A stretch of DNA of 64,000 nt from Octopus sinensis (Eukaryota), in contig NC_043006.1 of NCBI RefSeq assembly GCF_006345805.1, positions 95,418,001 through 95,482,000 on the forward strand, read 5' to 3'. Positions 16,736 to 59,628 of the stretch are shown piece by piece (position 1 is the first letter of the stretch; each line of letters starts with the position of its first letter). The notes beneath the pieces are model-generated. The model did no database searches and had not been told where the DNA came from. It was given only the letters and a program-made list of their open reading frames with translations. The position numbers were made by a program, and so were the translations under genes.

Positions 16736-17794
16736 CTAGCATTATGACCCGTCGTTGCCGGGTCATAGTGCTAGTGCATGTATATATGTGATAACAATAC
16801 TCAAAATATATAACAGACTGGAATTGTAAGCCCGTCTCTTGCAATTTCGATCAATTGTATCTTGTCCTCCCCCTTGTATAGAAGTGTGGCTACAATCCAG
16901 CCTACCTCTACTTCTGGGGGGAGGGCATTTTTAATTTTCATCTGGCACGTCCAACGACCCAGATATATAGGTAAAAATAAGATATTTCCACTTTGCAAGG
17001 TTCGAGTCGAGTACTCCCTTGCACGCTGCGTTGACTCGAACCTTGCTTCTATTGTGGCGAATTTACCGCCTCTGGTTAGATATCTTTCATAGTCGCACCA
17101 AGACACTTTTCGATGGTGCTTTCCTCCAGGTGTTCAAATCTTCTTTTTTCTCTACATTGTATACCTTATAGACAATAGTCTTTTCTTTAATTTAATTTTT
17201 TATTATCCATCTCGACTATTCCATTTCTGCACGCTAATTTTATTTTTAATTTATTCCCATTCATGTGAAACCACTTATTCAAGTTCAAATCATTGATGCA
17301 ATTTTATACTAATTGGTATTTTTACTTTTGCTATGTTACGATTATATTATACTTTAGTTTGATTTTAATTATTACTTACTACATATAATTCAATTGTTAT
17401 TATTTTTATTGTTAAATTGAAAATAGAGAAGCGTTTTTGTTTCACTTTTAACACGTGATACTGAAATAGTGGAGAAGATATGATATTGCTATGGGCTCGC
17501 TCTAGGCATGAAGTTGAACATTTTTTCTCATGAAACTACATGGACCCTAAGTAAGGCATGTGTAAAATTTGAATGGAATTGGTTGTGTAGTTCTCAAGTT
17601 TTAGGGAATCGTAGTGGAGAAGATATGATATTGCTGTGGGCTCGCCCTAGGCAAAAATTTAAATTTATTTGCCGATGACACTCCCCGGACCTTAAGTAAG
17701 GCATGTGTAAAATTTGAATGAAATTGGTTGTGTAGTTCTCAAGTTTTAGGGAAACACACAGACAGGCACACATTCTCAGTTTTATGTATAGAGA
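16736..17794 (-). mobile_element. Non-autonomous Helitron carrying a captured Tx1 ORF1 fragment (empty-site copy)
   Basis: Minus-strand 5' TC at ~17794 and 3' hairpin plus CTAG|T at 16739-16736. Internal ~148-bp tandem duplication at 17465-17752. Colinear with 22248-22736 plus 33159-33843. Confidence 0.85.
16830..17200 (-). pseudogene. Frameshifted fragment of a Tx1-type ORF1 (RRM-like region) inside the Helitron
   Basis: Across frameshifts it reads KTIVYKVYNVEKK..RFEHLEESTIEKCLGATMKDI..YLTRGGKFATIEARF..LFLPIYLGR..LPPEVEVGWIVATLL. This aligns with LINE ORF1 KRIIYKTYDTTKKMIQKIEEKKIEFCLKPFMDKITYINRGKRYGTVEVRF..LLPLYKGK..IPPEADAECLVAAV. Confidence 0.8.
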
Positions 17795-22983: not shown

Positions 22984-25900
22984 TTATGTTGTATCTTTCA
23001 CTCGCAACTTTCGTGCTACATCCTTCCATCGTTCTTCATACACTCTCCTAGTCAGGCATATTCTCCCCAGCCCTATCTTCCTTTTCAGGTGAAAGATGAA
23101 ATAATTCATCAAACCAGGGCCGGAGATGAACTTGCCTGACTGTAAACCTTTCATTCTCGTCTTCCATATCACCTCTTTCGCAATTGCTACTACAACGAGA
23201 AAACGAAAGTTACCGTCATTCACGAGGAAATCCGGTGGGTCAATTTTTGTAATCGACTCAGTCGACAGCTGTACTCTTCGTGTACCTGACAACAGGTGTT
23301 CGGCATAAACCCACACCTCAGACACGTCCGGACAATGAACAATAGCGTGCGGGACGGTTTCCCTATCCCGCCCGCATCTTGGACATATCGGACTGTCTTG
23401 GCCACCGTGCCTTGCGAGTTTATCCCGAACAGGTAGAGCTCCTCTGTAGCATTGCCATGCCAGAGACTTCTGGAAGTTGTCCAGTGTCCTCGGCTCGAAC
23501 GTACGTCGGAACAGACTGGCCAGCTGATTATCGTCGAGACCTAGGGTTTCCCCCAAGGTATCTTCACATTCCGCCTCTACCAACCCTCTATAGAAGAATG
23601 TGGTGGAACCCCCACCGCAGGCGTTGCCCGAGCGACGGAATAGCAGGAGAGCCTTGCGACACTCCGTGTACAAGTACCAAGTTTCGATCTACGATTCAGC
23701 CAGGTTTCCCATCCACCGAAACTAGTGAACTTGGGAAACATCAGTTTTGCTAGCGAAGACCACACCCATTCACCATCCAGGTAGAGCCACAGATGTCTTA
23801 ACCTCAGCGCATGTCTGCGCATCATCAGCCAAGGCATCCCTAGCCCACCCTTTAACGGTTGTTGACAGCAAGTAGAGCGTTTCACAAGTGGTTTCCCGCC
23901 CTTCCACAAGAAGTAGAAGAGCTGTCTTTCCAACTTGATCAACCACGAATCAGGGCAAGGAACGACGGAAAGGCGGTAGGTGATAACCGATGCGATAAAC
24001 ACATTGGCCACCTCAGCCCTCCCTTTCAGGGATAGCCACCGCCAAGACCAGGTCTTGGCTACTGCAGCCACCTTGCTCGTTACCTCGCCCCAATTCTTCT
24101 CTATTTGGAGGTCTGGACCGAACCAGACCCCTAGCAGTTTAATCGGACCCTCCGTCCAACGTCCCACGACGCTGTCAGGAGGCATCGACTTGCCTCTCCA
24201 GGTGCCGAGTTGCAAGCCGACTGACTTTTCGCGATTAACTTTTGCTCCTGTCACCGTCTCGTAAACCTCTATGGCCTTGCCTACTTTACATAGGTGGTCC
24301 CTTTCGGTTACGATGATGGTGATGTCATCCGCGTACGCTGACACTGATTTTCCATTACCTGGCTGTCTCGGGATGCTGCTCAGTTTTCGCAGTAATGGCT
24401 CGAGAGCCATCACGTACAAAAGCGGGGAGAGCGGACACCCTTGACGAACCGAGCGTTTGATTTTGAACGGCTTCGACAAGAAGCCGTTCACCCGAACTAC
24501 CGAGTCGATGTTATCATAAATTTGGATAATCCACCTGAGGAAGCCAAGGCTCAGCCCGAACTGTGCCAGGGCAGATACCAGGTAACGATGGTCGACCCTA
24601 TCAAAAGCTTTAGATTGGTCTAATTGGACCAGTGCCCCACCCTTGCCAGAATCACTATTAAACCCCTCTATAGTGTACCGCATTAGATGGAGATTATCCT
24701 GAATGGATCTGCCCGGAACGGCACATGTCTGTGCCTCTCCGATCAGACCATCCGCGACACGCGCCAATCTTTTCGATAACACTTTGGCCAAAATCTTCAA
24801 CTCTGTGTTTAGTAGAGTGATGGGCCTGAAATTATCAATGCACTCCCCCTTGCTCGGGTCCTTTCTGACGAGAGTCACTACTCCCCGGCGCACAGATCTG
24901 GGTATAAGCCCGTTCTGCTGCCAGTTCGCATAGACCTCCGCCAGTAGGTGCCCGAACAAGTCTGGCATACTCTTATATAACTCATAGGGTAGACCATCCA
25001 AACCCGGCGCCTTGCCCGCGCCGCAGTCCGCCATTGCCTCAACCACCTCCTCAGGCGTGATTGGCCCTTCACAGCCCTCCGCATCTCGCCCCGATAAGCG
25101 CGGCAGCCCGTCGAGTAGCTCCGTAAAGGCCCTCCTCCTATCCAGTCCGCCGCACTCACCGAAAAGCTGAGCGAAGTGCTCCTGAAAGGCCTCACACATC
25201 TCCTCGGGTTCGTTTATCAACTCACCTTGTTGGTTCGTCAAAGATCGAATCGTGGCATCGTTACCATGCCGAGCTTCCACCACTCGGGCCCATCTCACGG
25301 CGTTGATTCCTTCACATCCCATATGGCGGATTCTAGCCCTGACAATGCAGCCCATGTGTTTGGCCTCGAGGTGCTGGTTTAACACCAGTCTCTTGGACGC
25401 CACCTGAGCCGCAGAGCCAGTTTTCATGGCTTCCTCTAATTCCTTAACTAGAGTAGTTTCCCTTCTAGCCTCTCTAGCCACTACTCCTATGCTATATCTA
25501 ATAGACTCAAACTTGATGGCTCGTTTGAGGGCGTACCACCATTTGTTATTAATGATGGTACCAGATAGTGCCCTCTGAATTATATTCCTAATCCGGTCTT
25601 TGTACTCCTTAATCGCCAAAAGGGACGTATTAAGTTTCCAGTAACCGGATCCTCTATTTTTAACCTTATCTATGTCAAGCTTACAAGTGACCATTTTATG
25701 ATCACTGTAGCTGATCGGGTAAAACTGTGGACACTTAGCTATTTTACTGTCTACTTTTCTAATTAGTATTCTATCTAAATATGACCTGGAAGATCCGTCG
25801 CTGTTTGACCATGTCCACAATGGAGCGTTCGGAAATTCCAGCCTATAAGGATCTGCTAGCTCAAAGCGGCTTAGCAGTTCCATGAAGCCACTGTTGCCTT

Positions 25901-26365
25901 TTCTATCTGGACACGAGCCAACATAATCTACATCCGCTTTGCAAGTTGTGTTAAAGTCTCCTAGCACCACTAATGAATGCGAAGTACCAAGAAAGTTTTC
26001 TAGTTCACGAAAATAATCACTTTGCCCTGTATGGTTGGGTGCGTAAATTGCAACCAGTCTGATAACTTTACCAAATCCATGACGACCAGCCTACCTTCTG
26101 GATCTGCAAAAATTAACTTTTTCTCAGAAACCCGGTTTCTTTTTAATAGGACCAACACCCCACTCCCGCCTGTAGGACTGCCAGGAGAGAAAAAACTCTC
26201 GTAGCCGTCAAACAGCGGGAGTAGACCTCTTGGCCCCTCTAACCGGGTTTCTGTAGCAACAATAACATCTAAATTACGCGACCTGATATCATGCAGGAAG
26301 CGACCTTGCTTCCAGCCTGCTCCCAGGCCGCGCACATTCAAACAACCAACATAAATGTAATCCAT
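22984..26365 (-). pseudogene. ORF2 of element A: AP endonuclease, reverse transcriptase and CCHC zinc finger; two frameshifts (~26075, ~23672)
   Basis: APE motifs CLNVRGL, ATET, (V)AIYAP, VLGDFN, YLDRIL, SDH. RT motifs KAPGLDGLP, FRPITLLN, LDQSKAFDRVDH, VRQGCPLSPLLY, AYADDIT. C-terminal CPRC..ETVPHAIVHC. Confidence 0.92.
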
Positions 26366-26373
26366 TACTTACC

Positions 26374-27754
26374 TTATATCAGTGGTTCGGTTTTCTCTTG
26401 TTCTTCTAACTCTTTTTCTGGGCCTCGTGGGGGAGTCTGACGTAGGCCCTCGAATATATGTGGAGATGTCACATCCAATCTAAGTGGGCCTACGTCATGG
26501 AAGAATTCTGACTTTATCCGCCCGTAATCCTTCCGACCTATTCTGTAAATTACAAAGTCGTTTTTTTTCACTACTTTCTCCACTTTGGCCATGGCTGCCA
26601 ACACGTTTCCGAGTCTGCTATTTGCTGCCTTTACGGCCATATACGAGTTCATTGACTCTTTTTTCTTTTTTAAAATTACTCTGGGAGGGGTGGTTTCCGT
26701 TTTTCTTTTTTTTTTTCCGGTAATTTTTGCCCACCCCTCCTCATTTATCTTTTCCTCGCTCTTTTTTTTCCTCCGCCGCTGGTTCTGCTGTCACCGTCAC
26801 CTCCACACCTTCAGTCTTCCCTTCTGGGCCGTCCGACGCTGCTTCTGGTGACACATTATCTTCTTTTTCTTTTGGCTTAGGTGCTTCCTGCGGTTTGGGT
26901 TGGGGTTGGCATTCCGCCCTTACATGACCCTTCTTGCCGCAGCCGAAGCACCTCGGCTTTCTGCCCTCCACGAAAACTGTTATTTTCTCGTCTTCACTAA
27001 TCTTTACCGTTTCTGGAATTTCTTCCAGTGTTTGCACCTCCGCCTGAATGGCTATCACTATTTTTTGCCCTTTCCAAAACTCCTCTTCCTCCACTGTGGC
27101 CTGGAGGATGTTTATTTTTTCCTCCAGACCTACCATCACTGCTGCCACCAGACATTCAGCATCTGCCTCTGGCGGTATGTTGTTCATTGAAATTTTCGAC
27201 GTCCTTTTTCCTTTATACAATGGTAGTAAGACAATGTTTTCCGCTTTGATTGGCTCCATCGATAGTTTCTTCGCTATCTCCTCCGTAGTAAAACGCACCT
27301 CCACTGTGCCGTATCTTTTTCCTCTGTTTATATACGTTATTTTATCCATAAAAGGTTTTAGACAAAACTCTATTTTTTTTTCTTCAATTTTTTGGATCAT
27401 TTTTTTCGTTGTGTCGTAAGTTTTATATATTATTCTTTTTTTTTCTATATCGTCATGTATTTGTATGTTTGTGGCCACAGTCACTTCTGTGCCTTCTTTT
27501 TTTTACGCAGTCTGCAAATTTTTTAAAATTTTCTATATTTATTTTTTTGATCTTTTTCCAGCCACTTCAGCGAATTTTTTTGCTGGAGTTGATGCTGGTA
27601 CTGGTTTTTCCATTTTCTTGGGCGACGCCGCCTCTTTTTTCTTCGGCGACAGCGCCTCTTTTTTTCTTGGCGACAACGCCTCTTTTTTACTTGGCGACAA
27701 CGCCGGGTATTCATCCTCGCTCGTCACGGGCGAATAAGAGATGGGGGACTCCAT
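26374..27754 (-). pseudogene. ORF1 of element A (RRM-like region plus CX2CX4HX4C knuckle); breaks fall in or near homopolymer runs
   Basis: Pieces 27754-27539, 27484-26741 (CFGCGKKGHVRAEC) and 26652-26374. The breaks lie in A-tract-rich sequence and may be assembly errors. Confidence 0.8.
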
Positions 27755-27983
27755 CTTGAACAAATGGCTTTAACAAGCCTTTGGTAAATCCAAAATAAAT
27801 TGTAGTTTTCCCCCACTGAGGGGGGAACACCAACGCGAAGTCTTCGCGCGAAGGCTGACTTCGTCAGTTAGACAACAATAGACAAAACAGGTAGACCAAC
27901 AGTATATAATAACAGAGATAATAGTACGAGAGCAAAAATATATCAACTTACTAATAACGCAAAAAATTGATTTCCTCCAGGTT

Positions 27984-29656
27984 ATTTCTTTATTACCCAC
28001 CAGGGGCTACGAAGAATGCCGGACATAACAAAACATGGGGGACATAGAACAATATGATTAAATTTATGAGCAAATGAAAATGAAAAAATGATAATATGAA
28101 AGCGATGCTAACGGCCCCCTCCGCCAGCATCACTTACCTGTCCTTTTGTTTTCACTGTCACCTGAATGTTCATTCTCAATACGAAGACCATCCATATCCA
28201 TTCTTACTCCGAAACTGTCCTCCATATATTCCACGAATTCATCGCTCATTCTTGTATCTTTCACCTCCCAATTCTCCCTTTCAAACCTCAACACAAACTC
28301 ATCTATATTCTTCTTTTCCAGCACTGCATATCTGGTCCCATCCATTTCATACCATTCATACTCCTCCATTACCCTTTCAACCTCTTTCTGTTCAGTCACA
28401 ATATAAATGTTCGGCCTGGGTTCGTTTTCAAACTCTTGTCTGTCTGTATTGTTATTTTTCTTTTGTTTTCTTGTTGGAGGGGAGCGGGTGGGTTCACTGT
28501 CTGCAGGGGAAGGGTGGGATTCAGAGGGTGCGGGTGGTGTTGGGGTGGGTTGGGGCTTCGCACAGTTTTTCTTTTTCTTTCTTTTTCTCTTTTTTCTTCC
28601 TTCTTCCCACTCTTGTTGCATCTCCTCTTCTTCTGTCGTTTCTTTTTCCCTTTGGTTCTCTTTGGTTTCTTCCTCTTTTGGGGCTTCCGCGACGATTTCC
28701 TTTTCTTTTTCCTTTAGTGGTGGAGGGCAGTAGGCTCTTATGTGACCCCTCATGCCACACTTGTAGCACCTGGGCGCCCTACCCTCCACCCACACTCTCA
28801 TAATAATATTTCCAGTTTTTATACTGTCCGTAAGCTTTTCTATAACTTCCGCCTCCGTCTGTATGTTCATTACTAGTGTGGCACCTCTCACGCCTTCATA
28901 TTTCATAATGGCGTGGAGGATGTCCACTTTATCTTCATTTCCTTTGATAACCGCAGCCGTTATTAATTCGCCCTCTAGGTGTGGAGGTATTCCTTCCACC
29001 CTAATTCTGGTGGTCCTTCTATTCAAATACGAGGGGAACAAGTAAAACTTTTCTGTACTCACCACATTGGCTGCTATATTCCTGGCTGCTTTCTCACTTT
29101 TAAATTGTACCGTTATGATTCCATATTCTAATCCTTTTGTCATGTACACAATTTCTTCTCCTGTCCGTTTGAAAGCCTCTTCAATTGCTTCCATGTTAAT
29201 CACTTCCATTTTTCTACCTCCATTCATAAATACTTTATATTTAATGGTTCTACGATGGAACCAGTCTCCGCGCCCTGCTAGAGGCAACAGCTCAACCTCT
29301 CCGTTCTCCTCCTCCTTCATGAACTCCTGGAAGTCCGTCAACTTAGCCAGGTCTATCTCTTTTTCTGTTGACTTCTTCGTTATACCTGCATAGGTGCTTT
29401 CCATTTTTTTCACCGCCAACTCCTCCTCAGATGTCGACGAATTTTCAGAGAAATTTCTCCCTTCCATCTCATCCGTTTGGTAGAGGCGGCTCATAGTCGC
29501 CTCAGACCGAAAAACGGCCTCCCGAACAGAAAACGTGCGACGCACAGAACCAGTGCGACGCGAAACCGCACCAACCGACGTTCCAATTCCGCAACCACAA
29601 TTCACTTTTTGTTGTTTTTCTTTTTTAACCGAATTTTACAGAGCGCAAAAAAACGC
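27984..29656 (-). mobile_element. ORF1-only non-autonomous Tx1-derived retroelement (element B); its last 5' bases are displaced to 33155-33158
   Basis: Intact ORF1 followed directly by a ~145-bp 3' UTR ending in the stem-loop/AATAAA tail shared with element A; no ORF2 sequence. Confidence 0.85.
28130..29494 (-). CDS. Intact ORF1 protein of element B (454 aa from the first ATG; RRM-like, zinc knuckle CYKCGMRGHIRAYC, basic NLS-like tract)
   Basis: Open frame, homologous to the ORF1s of A and D (RIRVEGIPP, RVWVEGRAPRC, ends KRTGK*). Confidence 0.85.
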   Translation of the reverse strand: MSRLYQTDEMEGRNFSENSSTSEEELAVKKMESTYAGITKKSTEKEIDLAKLTDFQEFMKEEENGEVELLPLAGRGDWFHRRTIKYKVFMNGGRKMEVINMEAIEEAFKRTGEEIVYMTKGLEYGIITVQFKSEKAARNIAANVVSTEKFYLFPSYLNRRTTRIRVEGIPPHLEGELITAAVIKGNEDKVDILHAIMKYEGVRGATLVMNIQTEAEVIEKLTDSIKTGNIIMRVWVEGRAPRCYKCGMRGHIRAYCPPPLKEKEKEIVAEAPKEEETKENQREKETTEEEEMQQEWEEGRKKRKRKKKKNCAKPQPTPTPPAPSESHPSPADSEPTRSPPTRKQKKNNNTDRQEFENEPRPNIYIVTEQKEVERVMEEYEWYEMDGTRYAVLEKKNIDEFVLRFERENWEVKDTRMSDEFVEYMEDSFGVRMDMDGLRIENEHSGDSENKRTGK

Positions 29657-31395
29657 TATTTCTTTATTACCCACTAAGGGGCTACGAAGAATGGCGGACA
29701 TAACAACACATGGGGACATAGAACATTATAATTAAACTTTATGAACATGAATTGTTAAACGAAAAAAATGATAAAATGAAAGCGATACCAACGGCCCCGT
29801 CCGTCAGCATCACTTACCTGTCCTTTGTTTTTCATAGTCACTTGAATGTTCCTTGCCAATACGAACAAATTCCATATCCATTCTTACTCCGAAATACTCA
29901 TCCATATTTTCCACGAATTCATCGCTCATTCTTATATCTTTCACCTCCCAATTCTCGCATTCACACATCACCATAAAGTCACCTATGTTCTTCTTTTCAA
30001 TCACAGCATACCTAGTCTCACCAACATCATACCATTTATACTCTTCCATTAGACTTTTAACTTCTTTCTGTTCAGTCATAGTACAAATGTACGGCCTGGG
30101 TTCGATTTCAATCTCTTGTGTGTGTGTATTCTTTTTTTTCTTTTGTTTTCTTGTTGGGGGGGAGCGGGTGGGTTCAATGTCTGCATGGATAGGGTGGGAC
30201 TCAGAGGGTGTGGGTGGTTTTGGGGTAGATTGGAGTTCCATATTATTTTCTTTTTTTCCACGTATTCTTCTCTTCCTCTTACTTCCAGCTTCCTTCCATT
30301 TCTGTGTATTCTCTTCCTCTGTTTCCTTCTCCTCTGGTTTCTGCTTCTCTCTCTCTGGTTCGGGATCCATTTCTTTCCCTGGGGGAGGGCAGAAGGCTCT
30401 TATGTGACCCCTCAGGCCACACTTGTAACAACGTGGAGCCCTGCCCTCCACCCACACTCTCATGATCACTTCTCCCAGTCTGATGCTTTCCGTCAGGTCC
30501 ACCAGTACCTCGGTCTCTGCCTGTACGTTCAGCTCCACTGTTATGCCTCTCCAGCCCTCGGACTTAACCGAGGCATGGAGAATATCCACTTCGTCCTCGT
30601 GGCCGCTGATCACAGCCGCCACAATCCATTCTGCCTCCACGTTTGGTGGCACTCCTCCACCCTTATTCGTGTAATCCTCCTGTTTAAATACGTAGGTAAC
30701 AGTGTTACCTTTTCCGACTTCACCGCCTTCGCTGCCATCTTCCTCGCTGCAGATTCACTTTTAAAGTGCACAACTACGGTCCCGTACTTGGATCCTCGAG
30801 TCAGAAAATTTATTTCCTCCTCAGTTCTTCGCAGGGCTTCCTCTATCCATTCCATGGATACAACTTCTACCCTCTTCCTTTCGTTTGCGCACACCCTGTA
30901 AACAATGGTCCTCTTATCATACCATTCTTTTCTCCTGGGTGTCGGTGATAGTTCCACCTCACCGCTTTCCTTTTTCATGTATTTCTGGTAACTTGGCAAC
31001 TTGGCCATGTCGACCCCTTTCTCTTCCGCCTTCTTGGTTACACCGGCATAGGTATAACTCAGCTTGTCTTCCAATTTCCTTGCTGCCATTTCTAGCTCCT
31101 TCTCAGACGCAGACAAGTCTGATAAAGACTCAAAAACTCCAGCCTTTTCCTCCATCAGCTTCACTGCAATTGCCTGTTCCAGTTCCTCATCCGTCGTGGA
31201 CAAGTCTGTTAGAGACTCATAGTCCATTTCCTTCTGTCTGACAGACCGAAAACGGCCGCCAAAACAGAAAAAGTGTAACGCGCTGAACGAGCGAAACGCG
31301 AAACCGCGTCAACGCCGTTCAGAATTTCCACAACAACAACAACTCTTTCTTATCCTTTTTTACCGAATTTTACGAGCGTAAAAAACACGGAGCCG
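29657..31395 (-). mobile_element. ORF1-only element C (1739 bp)
   Basis: Flanked by AAAAAAACGC at 29647-29656 and 31396-31405; nearly identical to element D. Confidence 0.85.
29810..31227 (-). pseudogene. ORF1 of element C with a single 1-bp frameshift at ~30655
   Basis: ACTCCTCCAC in C versus ACTCCCTCCAC in D; otherwise it encodes almost the same 472-aa protein. Confidence 0.85.
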
Positions 31396-31405
31396 AAAAA
31401 AACGC

Positions 31406-33145
31406 TATTTCTTTATTACCCACTAAGGGGCTACGAAGAATGGCGGACATAACAACACATGGGGACATAGAACATTATAATTAAACTTTATGAACATGAA
31501 TTGTTAAACGAAAAAAATGATAAAATGAAAGCGATACCAACGGCCCCGTCCGTCAGCATCACTTACCTGTCCTTTGTTTTTCATAGTCACTTGAATGTTC
31601 CTTGCCAATACGAACAAATTCCATATCCATTCTTACTCCGAAATACTCATCCATATTTTCCACGAATTCATCGCTCATTCTTATATCTTTCACCTCCCAA
31701 TTCTCGCATTCACACATCACCATAAAGTCACCTATGTTCTTCTTTTCAATCACAGCATACCTAGTCTCACCAACATCATACCATTTATACTCTTCCATTA
31801 GACTTTTAACTTCTTTCTGTTCAGTCATAGTACAAATGTACGGCCTGGGTTCGATTTCAATCTCTTGTGTGTGTGTATTCTTTTTTTTCTTTTGTTTTCT
31901 TGTTGGGGGGGAGCGGGTGGGTTCAATGTCTGCATGGATAGGGTGGGACTCAGAGGGTGTGGGTGGTTTTGGGGTAGATTGGAGTTCCATATTATTTTCT
32001 TTTTTTCCACGTATTCTTCTCTTCCTCTTACTTCCAGCTTCCTTCCATTTCTGTGTATTCTCTTCCTCTGTTTCCTTCTCCTCTGGTTTCTGCTTCTCTC
32101 TCTCTGGTTCGGGATCCATTTCTTTCCCTGGGGGAGGGCAGAAGGCTCTTATGTGACCCCTCAGGCCACACTTGTAACAACGTGGAGCCCTGCCCTCCAC
32201 CCACACTCTCATGATCACTTCTCCCAGTCTGATGCTTTCCGTCAGGTCCACCAGTACCTCGGTCTCTGCCTGTACGTTCAGCTCCACTGTTATGCCTCTC
32301 CAGCCCTCGGACTTAACCGAGGCATGGAGAATATCCACTTCGTCCTCGTGGCCGCTGATCACAGCCGCCACAATCCATTCTGCCTCCACGTTTGGTGGCA
32401 CTCCCTCCACCCTTATTCGTGTAATCCTCCTGTTTAAATACGTAGGTAACAGTGTTACCTTTTCCGACTTCACTGCCTTCGCTGCCATCTTCCTCGCTGC
32501 AGATTCACTTTTAAAGTGCACAACTACGGTCCCGTACTTGGATCCTCGAGTCAGAAAATTTATTTCCTCCTCAGTTCTTCGCAGGGCTTCCTCTATCCAT
32601 TCCATGGATACAACTTCTACCCTCTTCCTTTCGTTTGCGCACACCCTGTAAACAATGGTCCTCTTATCATACCATTCTTTTCTCCTGGGTGTCGGTGATA
32701 GTTCCACCTCACCGCTTTCCTTTTTCATGTATTTCTGGTAACTTGGCAACTTGGCCAAGTCGACCCCTTTCTCTTCCGCCTTCTTGGTTACACCGGCATA
32801 GGTATAACTCAGCTTGTCTTCCAATTTCCTTGCTGCCATTTCTAGCTCCTTCTCAGACGTAGACAAGTCTGATAAAGACTCGAAAACTCCAGCCTTTTCT
32901 TCCATCAGCTTCATTGCAATTGCCTGTTCCAGTTCCTCATCTGTCGTGGACAAGTCTGTTAGAGACTCATAGTCCATTTCCTTCTGTCTGACAGACCGAA
33001 AACGGCCGCCAAAACAGAAAAAGTGTAACGCGCTGAACGAGCGAAACGCGAAACCGCGTCAACGCCGTTCAGAATTTCCACAACAACAACAACTCTTTCT
33101 TATCCTTTTTTACCGAATTTTACGAGCGTAAAAAACACGGAGCCG
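31406..33145 (-). mobile_element. ORF1-only element D (1740 bp)
   Basis: Flanked by AAAAAAACGC (31396-31405) and AAAAAACGC (33146-33154). Confidence 0.85.
31559..32977 (-). CDS. Intact ORF1 protein of element D (472 aa; RRM-like, knuckle CYKCGLRGHIRAFC)
   Basis: ATG-to-TGA open frame, homologous to the ORF1s of A and B. Confidence 0.88.
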   Translation of the reverse strand: MDYESLTDLSTTDEELEQAIAMKLMEEKAGVFESLSDLSTSEKELEMAARKLEDKLSYTYAGVTKKAEEKGVDLAKLPSYQKYMKKESGEVELSPTPRRKEWYDKRTIVYRVCANERKRVEVVSMEWIEEALRRTEEEINFLTRGSKYGTVVVHFKSESAARKMAAKAVKSEKVTLLPTYLNRRITRIRVEGVPPNVEAEWIVAAVISGHEDEVDILHASVKSEGWRGITVELNVQAETEVLVDLTESIRLGEVIMRVWVEGRAPRCYKCGLRGHIRAFCPPPGKEMDPEPEREKQKPEEKETEEENTQKWKEAGSKRKRRIRGKKENNMELQSTPKPPTPSESHPIHADIEPTRSPPTRKQKKKKNTHTQEIEIEPRPYICTMTEQKEVKSLMEEYKWYDVGETRYAVIEKKNIGDFMVMCECENWEVKDIRMSDEFVENMDEYFGVRMDMEFVRIGKEHSSDYEKQRTGK

Positions 33146-34412
33146 AAAAAACGCGACCTTTTTTCCTCTACATTGTATACTTTATAGACAATAGTCTTTT
33201 CTTTAATTTAATTTTTTATTATCCATCTCGACTATTCCATTTCTGCACGCTAATTTTATTTTTAATTTATTCACATTCATGTGAAACCACTTATTCAAGT
33301 TCAAATCATTGATGCAATTTTATACCAATTGCTATTTTTACTTTTGTTATGTTACGATTATATTATACTTTAGTTTGATTTTAATTATTACTTACTACAT
33401 ATAATTCAATTGTTTTTATTATCTCTAGTTTTTATTGTTAAAGTATCTGACATAAAATAGAGAAATGTTTTTGTTTCATTTTTAACACGTAATACTGAAA
33501 TAGTGGAGAAGATATGATATTGCTATGGGCTCGCTCTAGGTTAGAAGTTGAACAGTTTGTTTGCCCATGAAACTACATGAGCCCTAAGTAAGGCATGTGT
33601 AAAATTTGAATGAAATTGGTTGTGTAGTTCTCAAGTTTTAGGGAATCGTAGTGGAGAAGATATGATATTGCTGTGGGCTCGCGCTAGGCAAAAAGTTCAA
33701 AATTCTTTTGCCGATGACATTCCCCGGACCCTAAGTAAGGCATGTGTAAAATGTCAATGAAATTGGCTGTGTAGTTCTCAAGTTTTAGGGAAACACACAG
33801 ACAGACAGACAGACACACATTCTCAGTTTCATATATATAAACATAATCGCATAATGAGGAAAATTTGTTGCATTCGATCTGGAGCTGCGTCTTACGAGAT
33901 GTTTTGCAGTTAATCTGGATACACGAAAAAGTGTGTTTGACACATTGATTAACAATTGTTAAGATTGAAATCTTTATGGATGACCTATCGCCACATTTAC
34001 ATTTTCTGCAGAAACATTGTTTTTTTTTCTGGAGAATAAACGCTTAAGGCATATTCGAACCCGGAAAGCAATAAATTTCTCACTGTAAGCACACTAAAAG
34101 CTGCACATAGTGCCACCTATCTAGGCTGTGAAATGCATGGAGAGTAACTCACCTTTAGTCACAGAAAACGGATGCTTTGTTAGCTGATTAAAGAGACTAT
34201 CTCTCTTATGATACTTATCATTCTACGACGAGGAGAATATCTCTTTTATCTCCCTGATCATCTCGCAACGCATCCTGTCCAGTTTCTGTATCTGAGAGGA
34301 GATAACCCTTGCATCTCACAGTTAGGGTAAGTGGCGCTGCGAGCTGATTTTGGTGTGTTCTCAACACTCGTCTACAGCGACAATTCTTCTCCGTGACAAA
34401 ACCCAATGAATG

Positions 34413-52706: not shown

Positions 52707-53594
52707 CACATATATGTATGTATGTGTATGTATGTATGTGTTGGTGAGAGAGAGAGCGAGGAAGAGAGAGTAGAGTCAGTAGAGAGAGTGTATGTATGAG
52801 TGCTTATGTGTCTGCGTGTGTAGATAGATGCATATAAGTACGTATATGTATACATATGTATAAAGTTATGCATGTGTGTATATTCACATATATATATCCT
52901 AAATACTATATTCCTTATTTTATTCATTCATACATACGTACATACACCCACATACATATATATATATGAGTACATGCATACAATCATACATACACTCACA
53001 TAATACATATATACATGCATACAAACATACATACAACCACGTACATACATACATACATGCGTACATACATACTTTGATCTTGATCTCAGAACAATTTCCG
53101 TTTTATTTTGTTAGATTGTTATTTCTTGTATTCTTTTTTATGTTTTTACTTTTCTTCATCTTCTATTCATTTATGTGCTGTAAATCCTTTCGCGGGTTGT
53201 GCCAAGTTTTAACTAAATTCCTTGTAAATTCTCTATCGAACGACGTAAAAGCAACGTAAGGAAGCAATGAAAGGACGCAAATCCACCCTGCTGTATTATT
53301 GTAAAGCTGGGTAACTTGATTAGGTTTTACTAGGCATATAGCCATAAATATGCCGACTGATTCGCAAGCATACAGCTATGTAGACCGCCATATATACAGC
53401 TACACGTAGTCACAAATGTACTTGTGTGTCAATATATTGCATACATATACATATTTAACTATATATGTGTGTGCGTGTGCATGTGTGCTAGTATGTATGT
53501 GTTTGCACGTATGTGTGTATGTACTTGCGTGTTCCTATAGGTCTGTATATACATGTGTGTGTGTGTGTATGTGTGTGCATGTATATGTATATAT

Positions 53595-53716
<122 letters not shown>

Positions 53717-54398
53717 CTACATTTATGTATGCATATATATATATATATATATGTATATATTATACATATGTATATATACGTATAAATTTCTGTCAGCTCT
53801 TCTGGTGACGTCGATGTTCGCCTGGGGCTAAATGCATCAGTAATACCCCCACCACCCCGCCCTGACCCTAGCCACATTCAGGTGGCTGATCCCTCTTATG
53901 TTATAGAGCAGTTACTGTTTATATCTCGCCCAGAGATTTATATTGGTTTCGAACAGATTTTCTACGCCAGTGACTGTGGTTACTGTGTGAAAATCTATAT
54001 ATATCCAGCCTGTAGAGGGAGTCCTCAACGAAGAGCGGTGCTTACCATACGTTGACAAGAGCAATAACTTCGAACCGGTCCGTGTGTAGTATCCGTATCT
54101 TCGGGGAGGCTGATCTCCCTTTGCTGGCTGGCAAGGACACCGAAATGGTGTCAGCTCTTCTGGTGACGTCGATGTTCGCCTAGGGCTAATGCATCAGTAA
54201 CACCCACCACCCCGCCTGACCCTAGCCACATTCAGATGGCTGATCCCTCTTATGTTATAGAGCAGTTACTGTTTATATCTCGCCCAGAGATTATTATTGG
54301 TTTCGAACAGATTTTCTACGCCAGTGACTGTGGTTACTGTGAAAATCTATATATATCCAGCATGTAGAGGGAGTCCCTCAACGAAGAGCGGTGCTTAC

Positions 54399-54440
54399 CA
54401 TACGTTGACAAGAGGCAATAACCTCGAAACCGGTCGTGTG
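54399..54440 (+). ncRNA. Minimal type I hammerhead ribozyme, copy 2
   Basis: CATACG-TTGACAA-GAGG-CAATAA-CCTC-GAAA-CCGG-TC-GTGTG. Stem II pairs perfectly; one C is missing next to the cleavage site. Confidence 0.7.
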
Positions 54441-54756
54441 TAGTATCCGTATCTTCGGGGAGGCTGATCTCCCTTGCTGGCTGGCAAGGACACCGAGATG
54501 GTGTCAGCTCTTCTGGTGACGTCGATGTTCGCCTGGGGCTAAATGCATCAGTAACACCCCCACCACCCCGCCCTGGCCCTAGCCACATTCAGATGGCTGA
54601 TCCCTCTTATGTTATAGAGCAGTTACTGTTTATATCTCGCCCAGAGATTTATTATTGGTTTCGAACAGATTTTCTACGCCAGTGACTGTGGTTACTGTGA
54701 AAATCTATATATATCCAGCCTGTAGAGGGAGTCCCTCAACGAAGAGCGGTGCTTAC

Positions 54757-54799
54757 CATACGTTGACAAGAGGCAATAACTTCGAAACCGGTCCGTGTG
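54757..54799 (+). ncRNA. Minimal type I hammerhead ribozyme, copy 3 (intact; predicted cleavage after C54793)
   Basis: Stem I CATACG/CGTGTG, core UUGACAA (U3-A8 in place of C3-G8), stem II GAGG/CTTC, GAAA, palindromic stem III ACCGGT, GUC cleavage triplet. Confidence 0.8.
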
Positions 54800-55029
54800 T
54801 AGTATCCGTATCTTCGGGGAGGCTGATCTCCCTTTGCTGGCTGGCAAGGACACCGAGATGGTGTCAGCTCTTCTGGTGACGTCGATGTTCGCCTGGGGCT
54901 AAATGCATCAGTAACACCCCCACCACCCCGCCCTGACCCTAGCCACATTCAGATGGCTGATCCCCCTTATGTGATATTTGTATTATTATACACCTATTAT
55001 GTATATTCATTTTTAATCTGTAAGACGAA

Positions 55030-57000
55030 GGTTATCTATATATATTGTTAGATGCCAGAGATGCTAGTAGAATCGGCCACATATTTATAATTTTCAGCCA
55101 GAGGAAGGAATCGCGGATCCGCTTTTATTCCAGGCTTGTATAAGTTCGTTACAGCCTCGTAAATAAGAGATAGAGAAATTTTCCGTTTCCAGCGTTCAGG
55201 CCACATGATATTCCACTCCCACCTGTTCTACCTTGCGCAGGATCCTTCAGATAAACATACCAAGATTTCAAGCCATTCTTCTCCAAGTGTTTAACCTCAT
55301 CTCGCCTCACGCCATCCTTTCGCTTTGCGTCTACTTTCTCCGATTGATAGAAGTGAGTGGTTCAAAGTCCACGTCAAACTCTATACGGATTCGAGATGTT
55401 GCCTTTTAATTTCTCAACCATGCCACTTATTTCTCATCTCTTTGCGTACATTCTAATCTGGTCTTTATGTCTCTATGCCTCATGCTCTCATTGCCACTTT
55501 CGCTTATTGCAAACTTACTCTTTCCGAACATCAAGATTTCGACCATTTGCGATAGCGATAGCTCTAATTATGCTCAACTGATGCCTTGCTTTACTGATCT
55601 AAATATTGCTGAAATTCCATGTTACATGTGGCTATACTTCTTTGCACGCCTCTCCCCCACTTCACAGATGTCATAGGCACTTCATATATTATTTGGAGCT
55701 ACATGAGTGTAAAGAGCCTTCGGTGGAGGAAAACGGAAACCTTGAAGTTATTTCGTAAACGTGATCCCAAGCCTGTTTCCATGATCTAAACTTGTATTCG
55801 CTATATGTAAAGGAAGCATCACGACATTTCGTAAGACATTCTTTTGTACTTTCCTTAATAGATGGAATGGCTTCATCTCGTGCAAGCAGCTGGATTTTGC
55901 TGGTTACTCTCTAGCTTCATAAAACTCCTGGATATTTTTAGCATGCAGTTCCACTTGTTACATGTTACCGCATTAACATTTGCTATCAGGTTTGGCTTGT
56001 TTGTACGTTTGTTAAAATCCTGCACTTGCCTCATCCATGAGACTACGCAATGGCCGGTGATGGGTCCTGACTGCAGTATTGGCCCTCCGATTCCTTCCTT
56101 TATGATCGCATTCACCCCTATAAGAAACAAGATGGTGGACATAACACAACCGGTTATATTGCTATTTCGAGTCAGGAAATGACCGGTGATGAGTAGCAGC
56201 TTTATTCCCCTAAAGTTGCTGATGATCGTTGTCCTGAATTGATAAGGAATACGGTTGTGTTCCATAGCTGCATTGATGATGACGCAAGCGGCCGAGCCTG
56301 TCGCGATTATCAAAGTTTCAGAGGAACCAGGGAAATATATTGATACATTCTGGGTGAAGGTGTCAACATATTTCTCAACATGGAGGTCGTCTTAAACAGG
56401 ACTGAAAAGAATGTATTCGCCTGAATACCCAGAAAAGGGAGATTGTAAGGAATTGGTCAAGCTCAGTAGAATCTGCTTCCTTTGGTAAGCACTTTTGTAG
56501 GATGGTGAAATTGAGCCAGTTCCTCATATTCTCCGCAAAATCTCCAGTGTACACAACAATATTAAGCCTTCTTACATAATTTGCAAGCTATACTGTTTGG
56601 TCCTGAGACAGATGACCGTTGATCTCTCGGTAGAATACCTTGGGCGTCTAGCCATCTTCAGGTCTATCAACCAGGATTGCAGTTAGCTCTTCTACCTAAG
56701 AATGTTATTTTATGGCTTTTTTTTTTGAGGAATTCTACATCATACTGCTGATCAATCTCCCAAGGCTTCTCCCAATAGGGCTTTGGTAAATTTGTGCGGT
56801 CCTTTATAAACTGAGCTCTTTGCACTTCCTCCTGCGTTCATTCTTTTCGAAAACTCTCCATTGCTCTTCAAGTCCTCTGCTCAAGCCTTTTACGCATTCT
56901 GTTTCCTCAAAACTTGCCCCTTTGAAGAATTCTTCTCTACTTTTGCACATTAGCATATCAAACAAGAGATTCTCTCTCTGGTCGCACAGGTTACTATGTA
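55030..57000 (-). pseudogene. Heavily degraded non-LTR retrotransposon RT region (HERO/NeSL-like)
   Basis: GCVMSTILFLIGVNAII (a QGC.SP.LF motif) and downstream LRNNFKV..IIYEVPMTSV; many stops and frameshifts, so boundaries are approximate. Confidence 0.5.
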
Positions 57001-57129
57001 AAGCAACCGAATTTCTATTTATTCATAGCCTATAATATTAAAATGGCATATGGTTTTCAATATTTCATAGACTAATGCTACCTGAAAACACAAAACTATA
57101 TCCCCTGCCCAGTAAGAGTAACCATCATA

Positions 57130-59289: not shown

Positions 59290-59466
59290 TGTTTTCATCT
59301 TTCCTTCTTTGGATCTTTCCTTTTCCTATGTTTCTGACGAAGAGCTCCACTCGAAACGTTAAACCCTCCTTGTTTCCTTCTTTCCTTAGCGTCCAATAAC
59401 ACTATACTTGTTCCACGTCCTCGCGTTGTTGTGTTTTCTCTTTGTGTTTTCATGTTTGGATTGACT

Positions 59467-59497
<31 letters not shown>

Positions 59498-59588
59498 ATA
59501 TATAAAAATATATATAGTCAATCCAATCATGAAAACACAAAGAGAAAACACTACAACGCGAGGACGTGGAACAAGTATAGTGTTATTG

Positions 59589-59591
<3 letters not shown>
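59290..59591 (+). mobile_element. Penelope-like pseudo-LTR remnant with a hammerhead motif (59330-59364) and a 76-bp inverted copy (59391-59466 / 59516-59591) around (TA)n
   Basis: GTTT-CTGACGA-A-GAG-CTCCA-CTC-GAAACGTT-AAAC; the inverted arms are nearly perfect. Confidence 0.7.

Positions 59592-59628
<37 letters not shown>

Follow-up and report, generated by a model that had tools for sequence, protein, structure and literature searches.

A dispersed 360-nt tandem element with a predicted type I hammerhead in Octopus sinensis, probably copied by Penelope-like elements and most likely from circular RNA

The window analyzed here is a 64,000-nt stretch of the Octopus sinensis genome, a 2.72-Gb genome in which microsatellites are abundant. 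Positions 53791-54976 of the window very probably represent an insertion of family A, a non-coding 360-nt tandem element that is dispersed through the genome, carries a predicted type I hammerhead, was likely copied by the machinery of a Penelope-like element (PLE), and most likely had circular RNA as its template. According to the mechanism that we propose, a multimeric transcript would pair two of its hammerheads via their ACCGGU palindromes and cut after GUC, and the resulting 360-nt monomer would be ligated into a circle. A PLE protein would then nick both strands of an AT-rich target, in most cases (TA)n, at positions about 7-14 nt from each other, and its reverse transcriptase (RT) would start at one position of the unit (E1) on one strand and at another (E2), about 41 nt downstream, on the other strand; for this step the insertion pattern is observed in the genome, and the enzyme is what we infer. 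As seen in the genome, the copies run back through the cut site for 0.2 to 3.3 turns and stop at scattered positions, giving single arms or inverted pairs; the window locus is a single E1-primed arm of 3.3 turns. The features of the locus are listed in Table 1.

Table 1. Features of the insertion and its surroundings (positions within the window).
Feature	Position	Strand	Remark
Whole insertion: single arm, 5'-truncated, 3.3 units, 3' end at E1	53791..54976	+	longest arm among 84 family-A insertions
Unit 1, 358 nt; four 1-nt deletions, each within a homopolymer run	53791..54148	+	
Unit 2, 353 nt; seven bases deleted, each within a homopolymer run	54149..54501	+	
Unit 3, 360 nt; no indels relative to the family	54502..54861	+	
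Partial unit 4 (unit positions 1-115); stops at E1	54862..54976	+	
(TA)n tract, 12 nt before the insertion; usual target context of family A	53582..53778	.	
Hammerhead copy 1: one stem II G and one GAAA A missing as assembled; palindrome and UC site (C54080) retained	54046..54086	+	
Hammerhead copy 2: core intact; one C absent at the cut site/stem I junction as assembled	54399..54440	+	
Hammerhead copy 3: complete type I with a U3-A8 core; cut predicted after C54793	54757..54799	+	
Extended stem I: outer helix 54748-54753 with 54801-54806, UAC/U internal loop	54748..54806	+	
GCCA..TGGC hairpin just upstream of E1, common to families B, D and E; candidate RT recognition element	54582..54598	+	
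E1, first fixed 3' end of the family (unit position about 113-115), internal here	54606..54616	+	71/135 outer ends
Tail of about 41 nt ending at E2 (unit position about 155-159); last 34 nt common to families A, B and D	54617..54657	+	54/135 ends

The array consists of 3.3 head-to-tail copies with a period of about 354-360 nt and 96% matches. An earlier note on this DNA had described tandem units of about 360 nt at 53791-54971; the units stand, and the true end lies at about 54976. Two hairpins described in the same place, GACACC-GAGAT-GGTGTC and CCTTTGC..GCAAGG, were also found in the sequence. The GC content of unit 3 is 49.7%, borderline under the 50% limit of retrozymes, and the coding capacity of the unit is small, the longest ATG frame being 43 aa in the sense and 84 aa in the antisense direction. 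No RT + GIY-YIG frame was found in the unit, in the window or continuous with any arm, and a 30-codon ATG frame spanning E1 was dropped as a candidate PLE ORF start because no copy extends it. Simple patterns revealed no Pol III A or B box, no tRNA gene lies nearby, and no target duplication is visible at this insertion.

Several other repeats were observed in the window. A decayed, frame-broken sequence that looks LINE-like by eye and has no PLE similarity adjoins the array (55000-57100, minus strand). At 22984-33058, also on the minus strand, lies a LINE whose endonuclease/RT frame is 837 aa long, with several tandem ORF1-like zinc-knuckle frames of 250-500 aa upstream of that frame. Tandems of two copies each, built from related units of 145-147 nt, lie at two separate places, 17467-17753 and 33501-33792, and an inverted repeat round a (TA)n core at 59386-59594 is possibly the remnant of another inverted insertion.

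Every unit of the array bears a type I hammerhead of the form UUGACAA...GAAA-CCGG-UC, which as assembled is intact in copy 3 only. Copy 3 reads CAUACG UUGACAA GAGG CAAUAA CUUC GAAA CCGG UC CGUGUG, and comprises stem I (CAUACG/CGUGUG), the core UUGACAA, stem II (GAGG/CUUC) with the loop CAAUAA, GAAA, the palindrome ACCGGU and a GUC site. The complete type I hammerhead proposed for this copy in the earlier note is thus present with all its parts at 54757-54799, and the 1-nt deletions that it reported in copy 1 (the stem II G and the A of GAAA) are real features of the assembly. It had also made use of copy 2 without noticing the C that is missing there from the UC/stem I junction (GGTCGTGTG). 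Its reading of stem II, in which G.U versus G-C would represent preserved pairing, does not hold up as covariation: the G.U is private to the locus, occurring in copies 1 and 3, in 1 of the 100 family matches listed and in none of 22 other full units. Nor is the hammerhead "minimal". In the canonical metazoan type I form (Cervera and De la Pena 2014, PMC4209133), helices I and II measure 6 and 4 bp and helix III is short and palindromic, exactly as here, whereas the min-HHR of PLEs has a helix II of 7-8 bp, a helix I of 4-5 bp and a poorly defined loop 1 (PMC4209133). Beyond its 4-bp helix II and 6-bp helix I, the unit possesses a conserved internal loop and an outer helix; this internal loop (UAC/U here, URY/U in sister families) likely makes the contact between loop I and loop II.

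Stems I and II were predicted by folding to form in both unit and dimer context, with two palindromes giving a 6-bp duplex. When the fold of unit 3 was compared with 60 shuffles, z was -2.9 for the sense strand and 0.0 for the antisense strand. The exact core pattern of the window subfamily had 115 matches in the genome and the wider family pattern 257, with no match to the reversed control in either case. Given these counts and the strand difference in folding, the hammerhead motif at the locus is not a chance occurrence. Copies of the unit at 94-99% identity are numerous (40 of 1832 candidates scored), and, besides copy 3, 19 of 22 other full units have a complete hammerhead. The hammerhead families of Rfam gave no hammerhead hit here at E up to 10, and none at four sister loci, three of which have C3-G8 cores; the Rfam models thus miss these hammerheads whatever the core.

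Two of the three hammerheads at the locus are broken as assembled, which, like the lack of a visible target duplication, counts against the proposed reading. The earlier note's proposal that this locus yields an RNA of about 360 nt is accordingly weaker than stated there. Dimer pairing could, as assembled, cut sites 1 and 3, yielding a 713-nt piece and not the monomer. Li et al. 2026 count an element as active if it has at least two consecutive complete hammerheads; the locus as assembled has only the one in copy 3, the breaks in the others resemble read errors, and two intact cores in tandem occur at other family loci. All 11 bases deleted in units 1 and 2 sit in homopolymer runs, compared with 7 of 25 in the 22 other full units, and for this reason we regard these deletions as probable read errors. 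Contigs of four larger runs, compared with 54030-54450, contain, at 54214 and after 54435, the additional C typical of the family; in the same comparison the deletions of hammerhead 1 were uncovered, a coverage hole that is uninformative. None of 24 runs is on record as RNA, and 14 are presumed to be so. Contigs of four of these 14, compared with 54600-55400, cover the unit but not the 3' flank of the locus, and all have C at 54781, where the locus has T. The longest pieces carry the variants and flanks of another copy (L047). Assembled contigs hold no information on RNA ends, strand or circles and weigh neither way. The L047 copy (L047:1205-1738, G000:C1319), which with its flanks dominates the presumed-RNA contigs, has C at core position 3 in runs X1 and X7 (organism A, two studies) where the assembly has T, giving C3.A8 by either polymorphism or editing. 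In all, the locus is an ordinary member of family A and may itself be inactive.

The insertion pattern of the family was read from 84 distinct family-A insertions with 135 outer 3' ends, a sample that favors long arms because loci were found via whole units, hammerheads or tails. Of these ends, 125 fell at one of two fixed sites, namely 71 at E1 (unit position about 106-115) and 54 at E2 (about 152-165), roughly 41 nt apart, and 10 fell elsewhere. Inverted pairs with their 3' ends facing outwards made up 50 of the 84 insertions. Such pairs followed a strict rule: 44 combined E1 with E2, six had one unclassified end, and none was E1+E1 or E2+E2. (TA)n flanked 57 of the 84 insertions; among the 27 others, 20 showed a duplication of 7-14 nt, a count made with no chance control and a length that may include 1-3 bases of the element. 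The LTR-unique-LTR layout was absent from all 84. The junction at the right flank of one insertion (L034) was also present in a contig of run X16 (organism C), and on that sequence match some insertions are common to the genome and organism C.

Family A is one of at least four related non-coding families (A, B, D and E) with units of about 350 nt. The members of this clan have in common the hairpin before E1 and the tail, to which exact matches numbered 738 (control, 0). The hammerhead families B and D (L142-L170, L173-L220) and E (L271-L279) are homologous to the unit, E being 67-80% identical to it, and show the same tail and two-end pattern as A. In all four families stem I extends past the URY/U internal loop into the outer helix. 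When 23 variants from the four families were compared, 95.9% of cells paired, versus 28-50% in slid controls, and 8 of 19 pairs had changed on both sides; the variants are hand-picked and related, and the shuffle figures overstate significance and are not probabilities. This is the covariation of core and stems across genomic copies that the earlier note had named as a check on its proposal. The note had also called U3-A8 compensatory, and positions 3 and 8 do covary across the family: a hand tally of the first 100 of the 257 family-A matches gave U-A 65, C-G 27, C.A 6, U.G 1 and A.A 1, that is, eight mismatched. Together, these patterns suggest that the predicted hammerhead is likely under selection and that its cleavage is likely what is selected.

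The core pair is C3-G8 in families B and D and U3-A8 in family E, from which it appears that the 3-8 pair has switched at least twice. A tree was built from 49 of 125 family-A rows (76 were dropped by random subsampling) and seven outgroup rows, with the root on B, D and E. In this tree, U3-A8 subfamilies formed basal grades of family A, C3 copies formed one nested clade (100/100), and C3.A8 copies, which are present at several loci, formed a supported clade inside it (97/95), which the tree did not place relative to the C3-G8 groups. By this topology U3-A8, which keeps the core 3-8 pair, is ancestral in family A, and C.A could be either an intermediate between U-A and C-G or the result of a later loss of the CpG type. 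The U3-A8 variant has been published before: it occurs in nature and is active in vitro (Perreault et al. 2011, PMC3088659), with about 1,300 hits in Schistosoma, in the min-HHRs of Cercyon PLEs (PMC4209133).

The two fixed ends, the E1+E2 inverted pairs and the (TA)n targets match the insertion signature of PLEs, and for this reason we consider PLEs the likely agents of mobilization. Partial tandems, inverted 5'-truncated copies and a tail are hallmarks of PLEs (PMC8557442). In vitro, purified Poseidon protein nicks both strands of AT-rich DNA, and its reverse transcription starts at two internal sites that bound a 30-40 nt tail (PMC11167929). Family A correspondingly has two 3' ends about 41 nt apart, partial tandems with inverted copies, and (TA)n targets. 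The family-wide pattern thereby supports the earlier proposal of a non-LTR retrozyme mobilized by a Penelope-like RT.

The nature of the template was examined in 118 arms of 78 family-A insertions. The first cut site was passed by 103 arms, and 69 were longer than one unit. Arm extents ranged from 0.2 to 3.3 turns with 5' breakpoints scattered round the unit, and those near the cut site (6 seen, 5.6 expected) formed no pile-up. This read-through argues that a cleaved linear monomer was not the template, and by the same pattern the template is either a circle or an uncut multimer. In 2434 diagnostic-site comparisons between repeated segments within a locus, 2406 agreed, whereas chance would give 982 disagreements. 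At 9 of 79 loci successive turns or both arms shared a variant absent from all other sampled loci. Such agreement fits one circular monomer copied round repeatedly. Internal discordance was seen in 16 of the 79 loci, including the window locus, where diagnostic position 104 distinguishes unit 4 from units 1-3; it could stem from post-insertion change, polishing error or a mixed multimer template.

An appreciable though minor chance attaches to the same PLE-driven insertion with an uncut linear transcript of a longer tandem array as template, the hammerhead only freeing the RNA from read-through or riding along. Arms across the cut site are equally compatible with an uncut multimer and with a circle, the discordance within 16 loci points the same way, the mismatched C3.A8 clade has amplified, and in sister family B at least six hammerhead units stand in one array (L220). 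Moreover, PLE insertion in vitro does not require hammerhead cleavage (PMC11167929), so that an uncut multimer could serve as template, and only one of nine Xenopus retrozyme dimers cleaved in vitro (10.64898/2026.07.22.740005). However, the recurrent compensatory change in the helices and the 3-8 pair makes it likely that cleavage is selected, read-through of the cut site would be explained by re-ligation, and the nine loci whose private variants are common to turns and both arms suggest that a single monomer was copied. The 84 insertions included no long family-A array, the longest arm being the 3.3 units of the window locus. We therefore keep to the circle as the most likely template. A bolder version of the circle reading, which we rate at somewhat short of even, is that a PLE RT rolls round a ribozyme-made circle and both nicked strands are primed on one molecule at different sites, with no likeness to PLE ends seen, and that the 3-8 pair switched at least twice, once through a mismatched C.A subfamily that spread nonetheless.

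It is quite improbable that a single monomer was inserted and then expanded locally to a short satellite by slippage or unequal crossover. Units 1-3 do share a private substitution at unit position 157 that none of 22 other full units has, and units 1 and 3 share a second; but one shared private base is also expected from the copying of one circle, and local expansion is superfluous because insertions across the family are typically partial tandems of 1-3 units that stop at E1 or E2.

PLEs of the genome have RT and C-terminal GIY-YIG domains with a CxxC linker of the Neptune/Nematis type, and some are intact and near-identical. Four autonomous families, two of them with intact RT+GIY-YIG frames of 775-781 aa, had readable 3' ends, which occur both with and without a tail, and three autonomous families also bear U3-A8 hammerheads. 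The tails of the four families showed no homology to the unit, which counts against mobilization of family A by a PLE, as non-autonomous elements in Chlamys generally resemble the 3' ends of their partners (PMC8557442). No tail sequence was seen for at least four further families. An intact-frame search and two 3'-end searches revealed no PLE with a homologous tail, and neither did a GIY-YIG scan (150 of 5029 candidates scored) or two patterns taken from contig loose ends, one of which led to family E and the other to nothing. Two candidates were rejected: a CTCG..GAG..TTATTAT likeness of the unit to one PLE family was not significant (p = 0.43), and a hammerhead beside an intact PLE frame in L123 was a separate family-B insertion.

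That the unit is the pseudo-LTR of an autonomous PLE and its copies 5'-truncated PLE insertions is very improbable and, judged by the arms, largely refuted for the 84 insertions: although ends, inversions and targets resemble those of PLEs, Xenopus retrozymes have homology to the pLTRs of PLEs (10.64898/2026.07.22.740005) and U3-A8 hammerheads occur in those three autonomous families, every arm passes from unit position 1 back into position 360 and none enters an RT frame, PLE fragments near some copies are separate neighbors, the window has no PLE similarity, and the hammerhead of the unit is canonical with tertiary loops whereas those of the genome's PLEs are minimal.

The PLE ribozymes themselves are diverse. 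Several families (L121-L132, L104, L105, L134, L140) have minimal U3-A8 hammerheads near the 3' end, and U3-A8 looks common among the genome's PLE ribozymes. Another autonomous-type family (L109, L178, L326-L355) has a 3' hammerhead with AUGAAUA, that is A3-U8, a very short stem II and a 54-nt tail. Young families (L125:674-4374, L129, L280-L293) carry a separate upstream frame that overlaps the RT-endonuclease frame; in L125 this frame is 479 aa long and gave no informative Pfam hit. The L280-L293 copies, tandem and inverted at 4.27 kb, mostly have CCGAAGA instead of CUGAAGA in the ribozyme core. A type I hammerhead-like motif, CUGACGA..GAAAUCGGUC, was seen at L125:80-135 in a 650-nt segment duplicated on both sides of the PLE. 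At L205, L178, L317 and L337, clan members lie inside a (TA)n tract at or near a PLE 3' end, a co-location that probably reflects a shared target preference.

Elements of this kind are already known. At the family level, family A has every sequence-testable feature of the non-LTR retrozymes described in PMC7229834, which include mussel units of 350-390 bp (Cervera and de la Pena 2020). Its unit lies within the size range of such retrozymes, about 170-400 nt. Like these mussel repeats above all, it has a non-coding tandem unit of about 350 nt, GC just under 50%, a canonical type I hammerhead whose helix III is short and palindromic, and target duplications of more than 4 bp, and it shares its genome with PLEs. 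In contrast to them, family A is mostly U3-A8, occurs as dispersed insertions of 1-3 units and inverted pairs, and has two mapped RT start sites; RNA circles have been shown for the retrozymes of PMC7229834, and family A is known from genomic sequence. Neptune/Nematis-type PLEs and Poseidon PAc (PMC11167929, PMC8557442) share with family A two RT starts, a tail, AT-rich/(TA)n targets, partial tandems, inverted 5'-truncated copies and a type I hammerhead near the 3' end, but family A is 360 nt long, as against 3-4 kb, with a canonical and not a minimal hammerhead and no RT or GIY-YIG frame. Non-autonomous PLEs of Chlamys such as MRC1 (PMC8557442) are likewise non-coding, head-to-tail multicopy and PLE-made; unlike family A, they are described in that account as having no canonical hammerheads and as generally resembling the 3' end of an autonomous partner. 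The compensatory U3-A8 pair is the same as in the Schistosoma Cercyon min-HHRs (PMC4209133) and in the hammerheads of Perreault et al. 2011 (PMC3088659), whereas in family A it sits in a canonical fold of the retrozyme type, and U-A, C-G and C.A subfamilies coexist within the one family.

In 2020, the mobilizing enzyme and the circle as a transposition intermediate were put forward as a hypothesis (PMC7229834). A 2026 preprint (Li, Clavereau and Pollet, 10.64898/2026.07.22.740005) files animal retrozymes as non-autonomous PLE derivatives. The Xenopus and other vertebrate retrozymes that it treats are also non-autonomous tandem hammerhead elements thought to be PLE-powered; there, the PLE link is argued from co-occurrence and pLTR homology, and in family A it comes from insertion anatomy, with no homologous pLTR found. 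In the available text of that preprint, the word "tail" is absent and "inverted" occurs in one reference title only. The literature searched contained no mapping of PLE tails or inverted arms onto a retrozyme family, though one may be in print. To this question family A adds exact RT start sites, target duplications and the strict one-of-each rule for inverted arms, and on this genomic evidence the case for PLE mobilization is unusually clear in family A. The question of the enzyme and the circle becomes testable with a purified PLE protein and the 360-nt circle, and the U-A, C.A and C-G subfamilies constitute a natural series on whether cleavage matters for the mobility of retrozymes.
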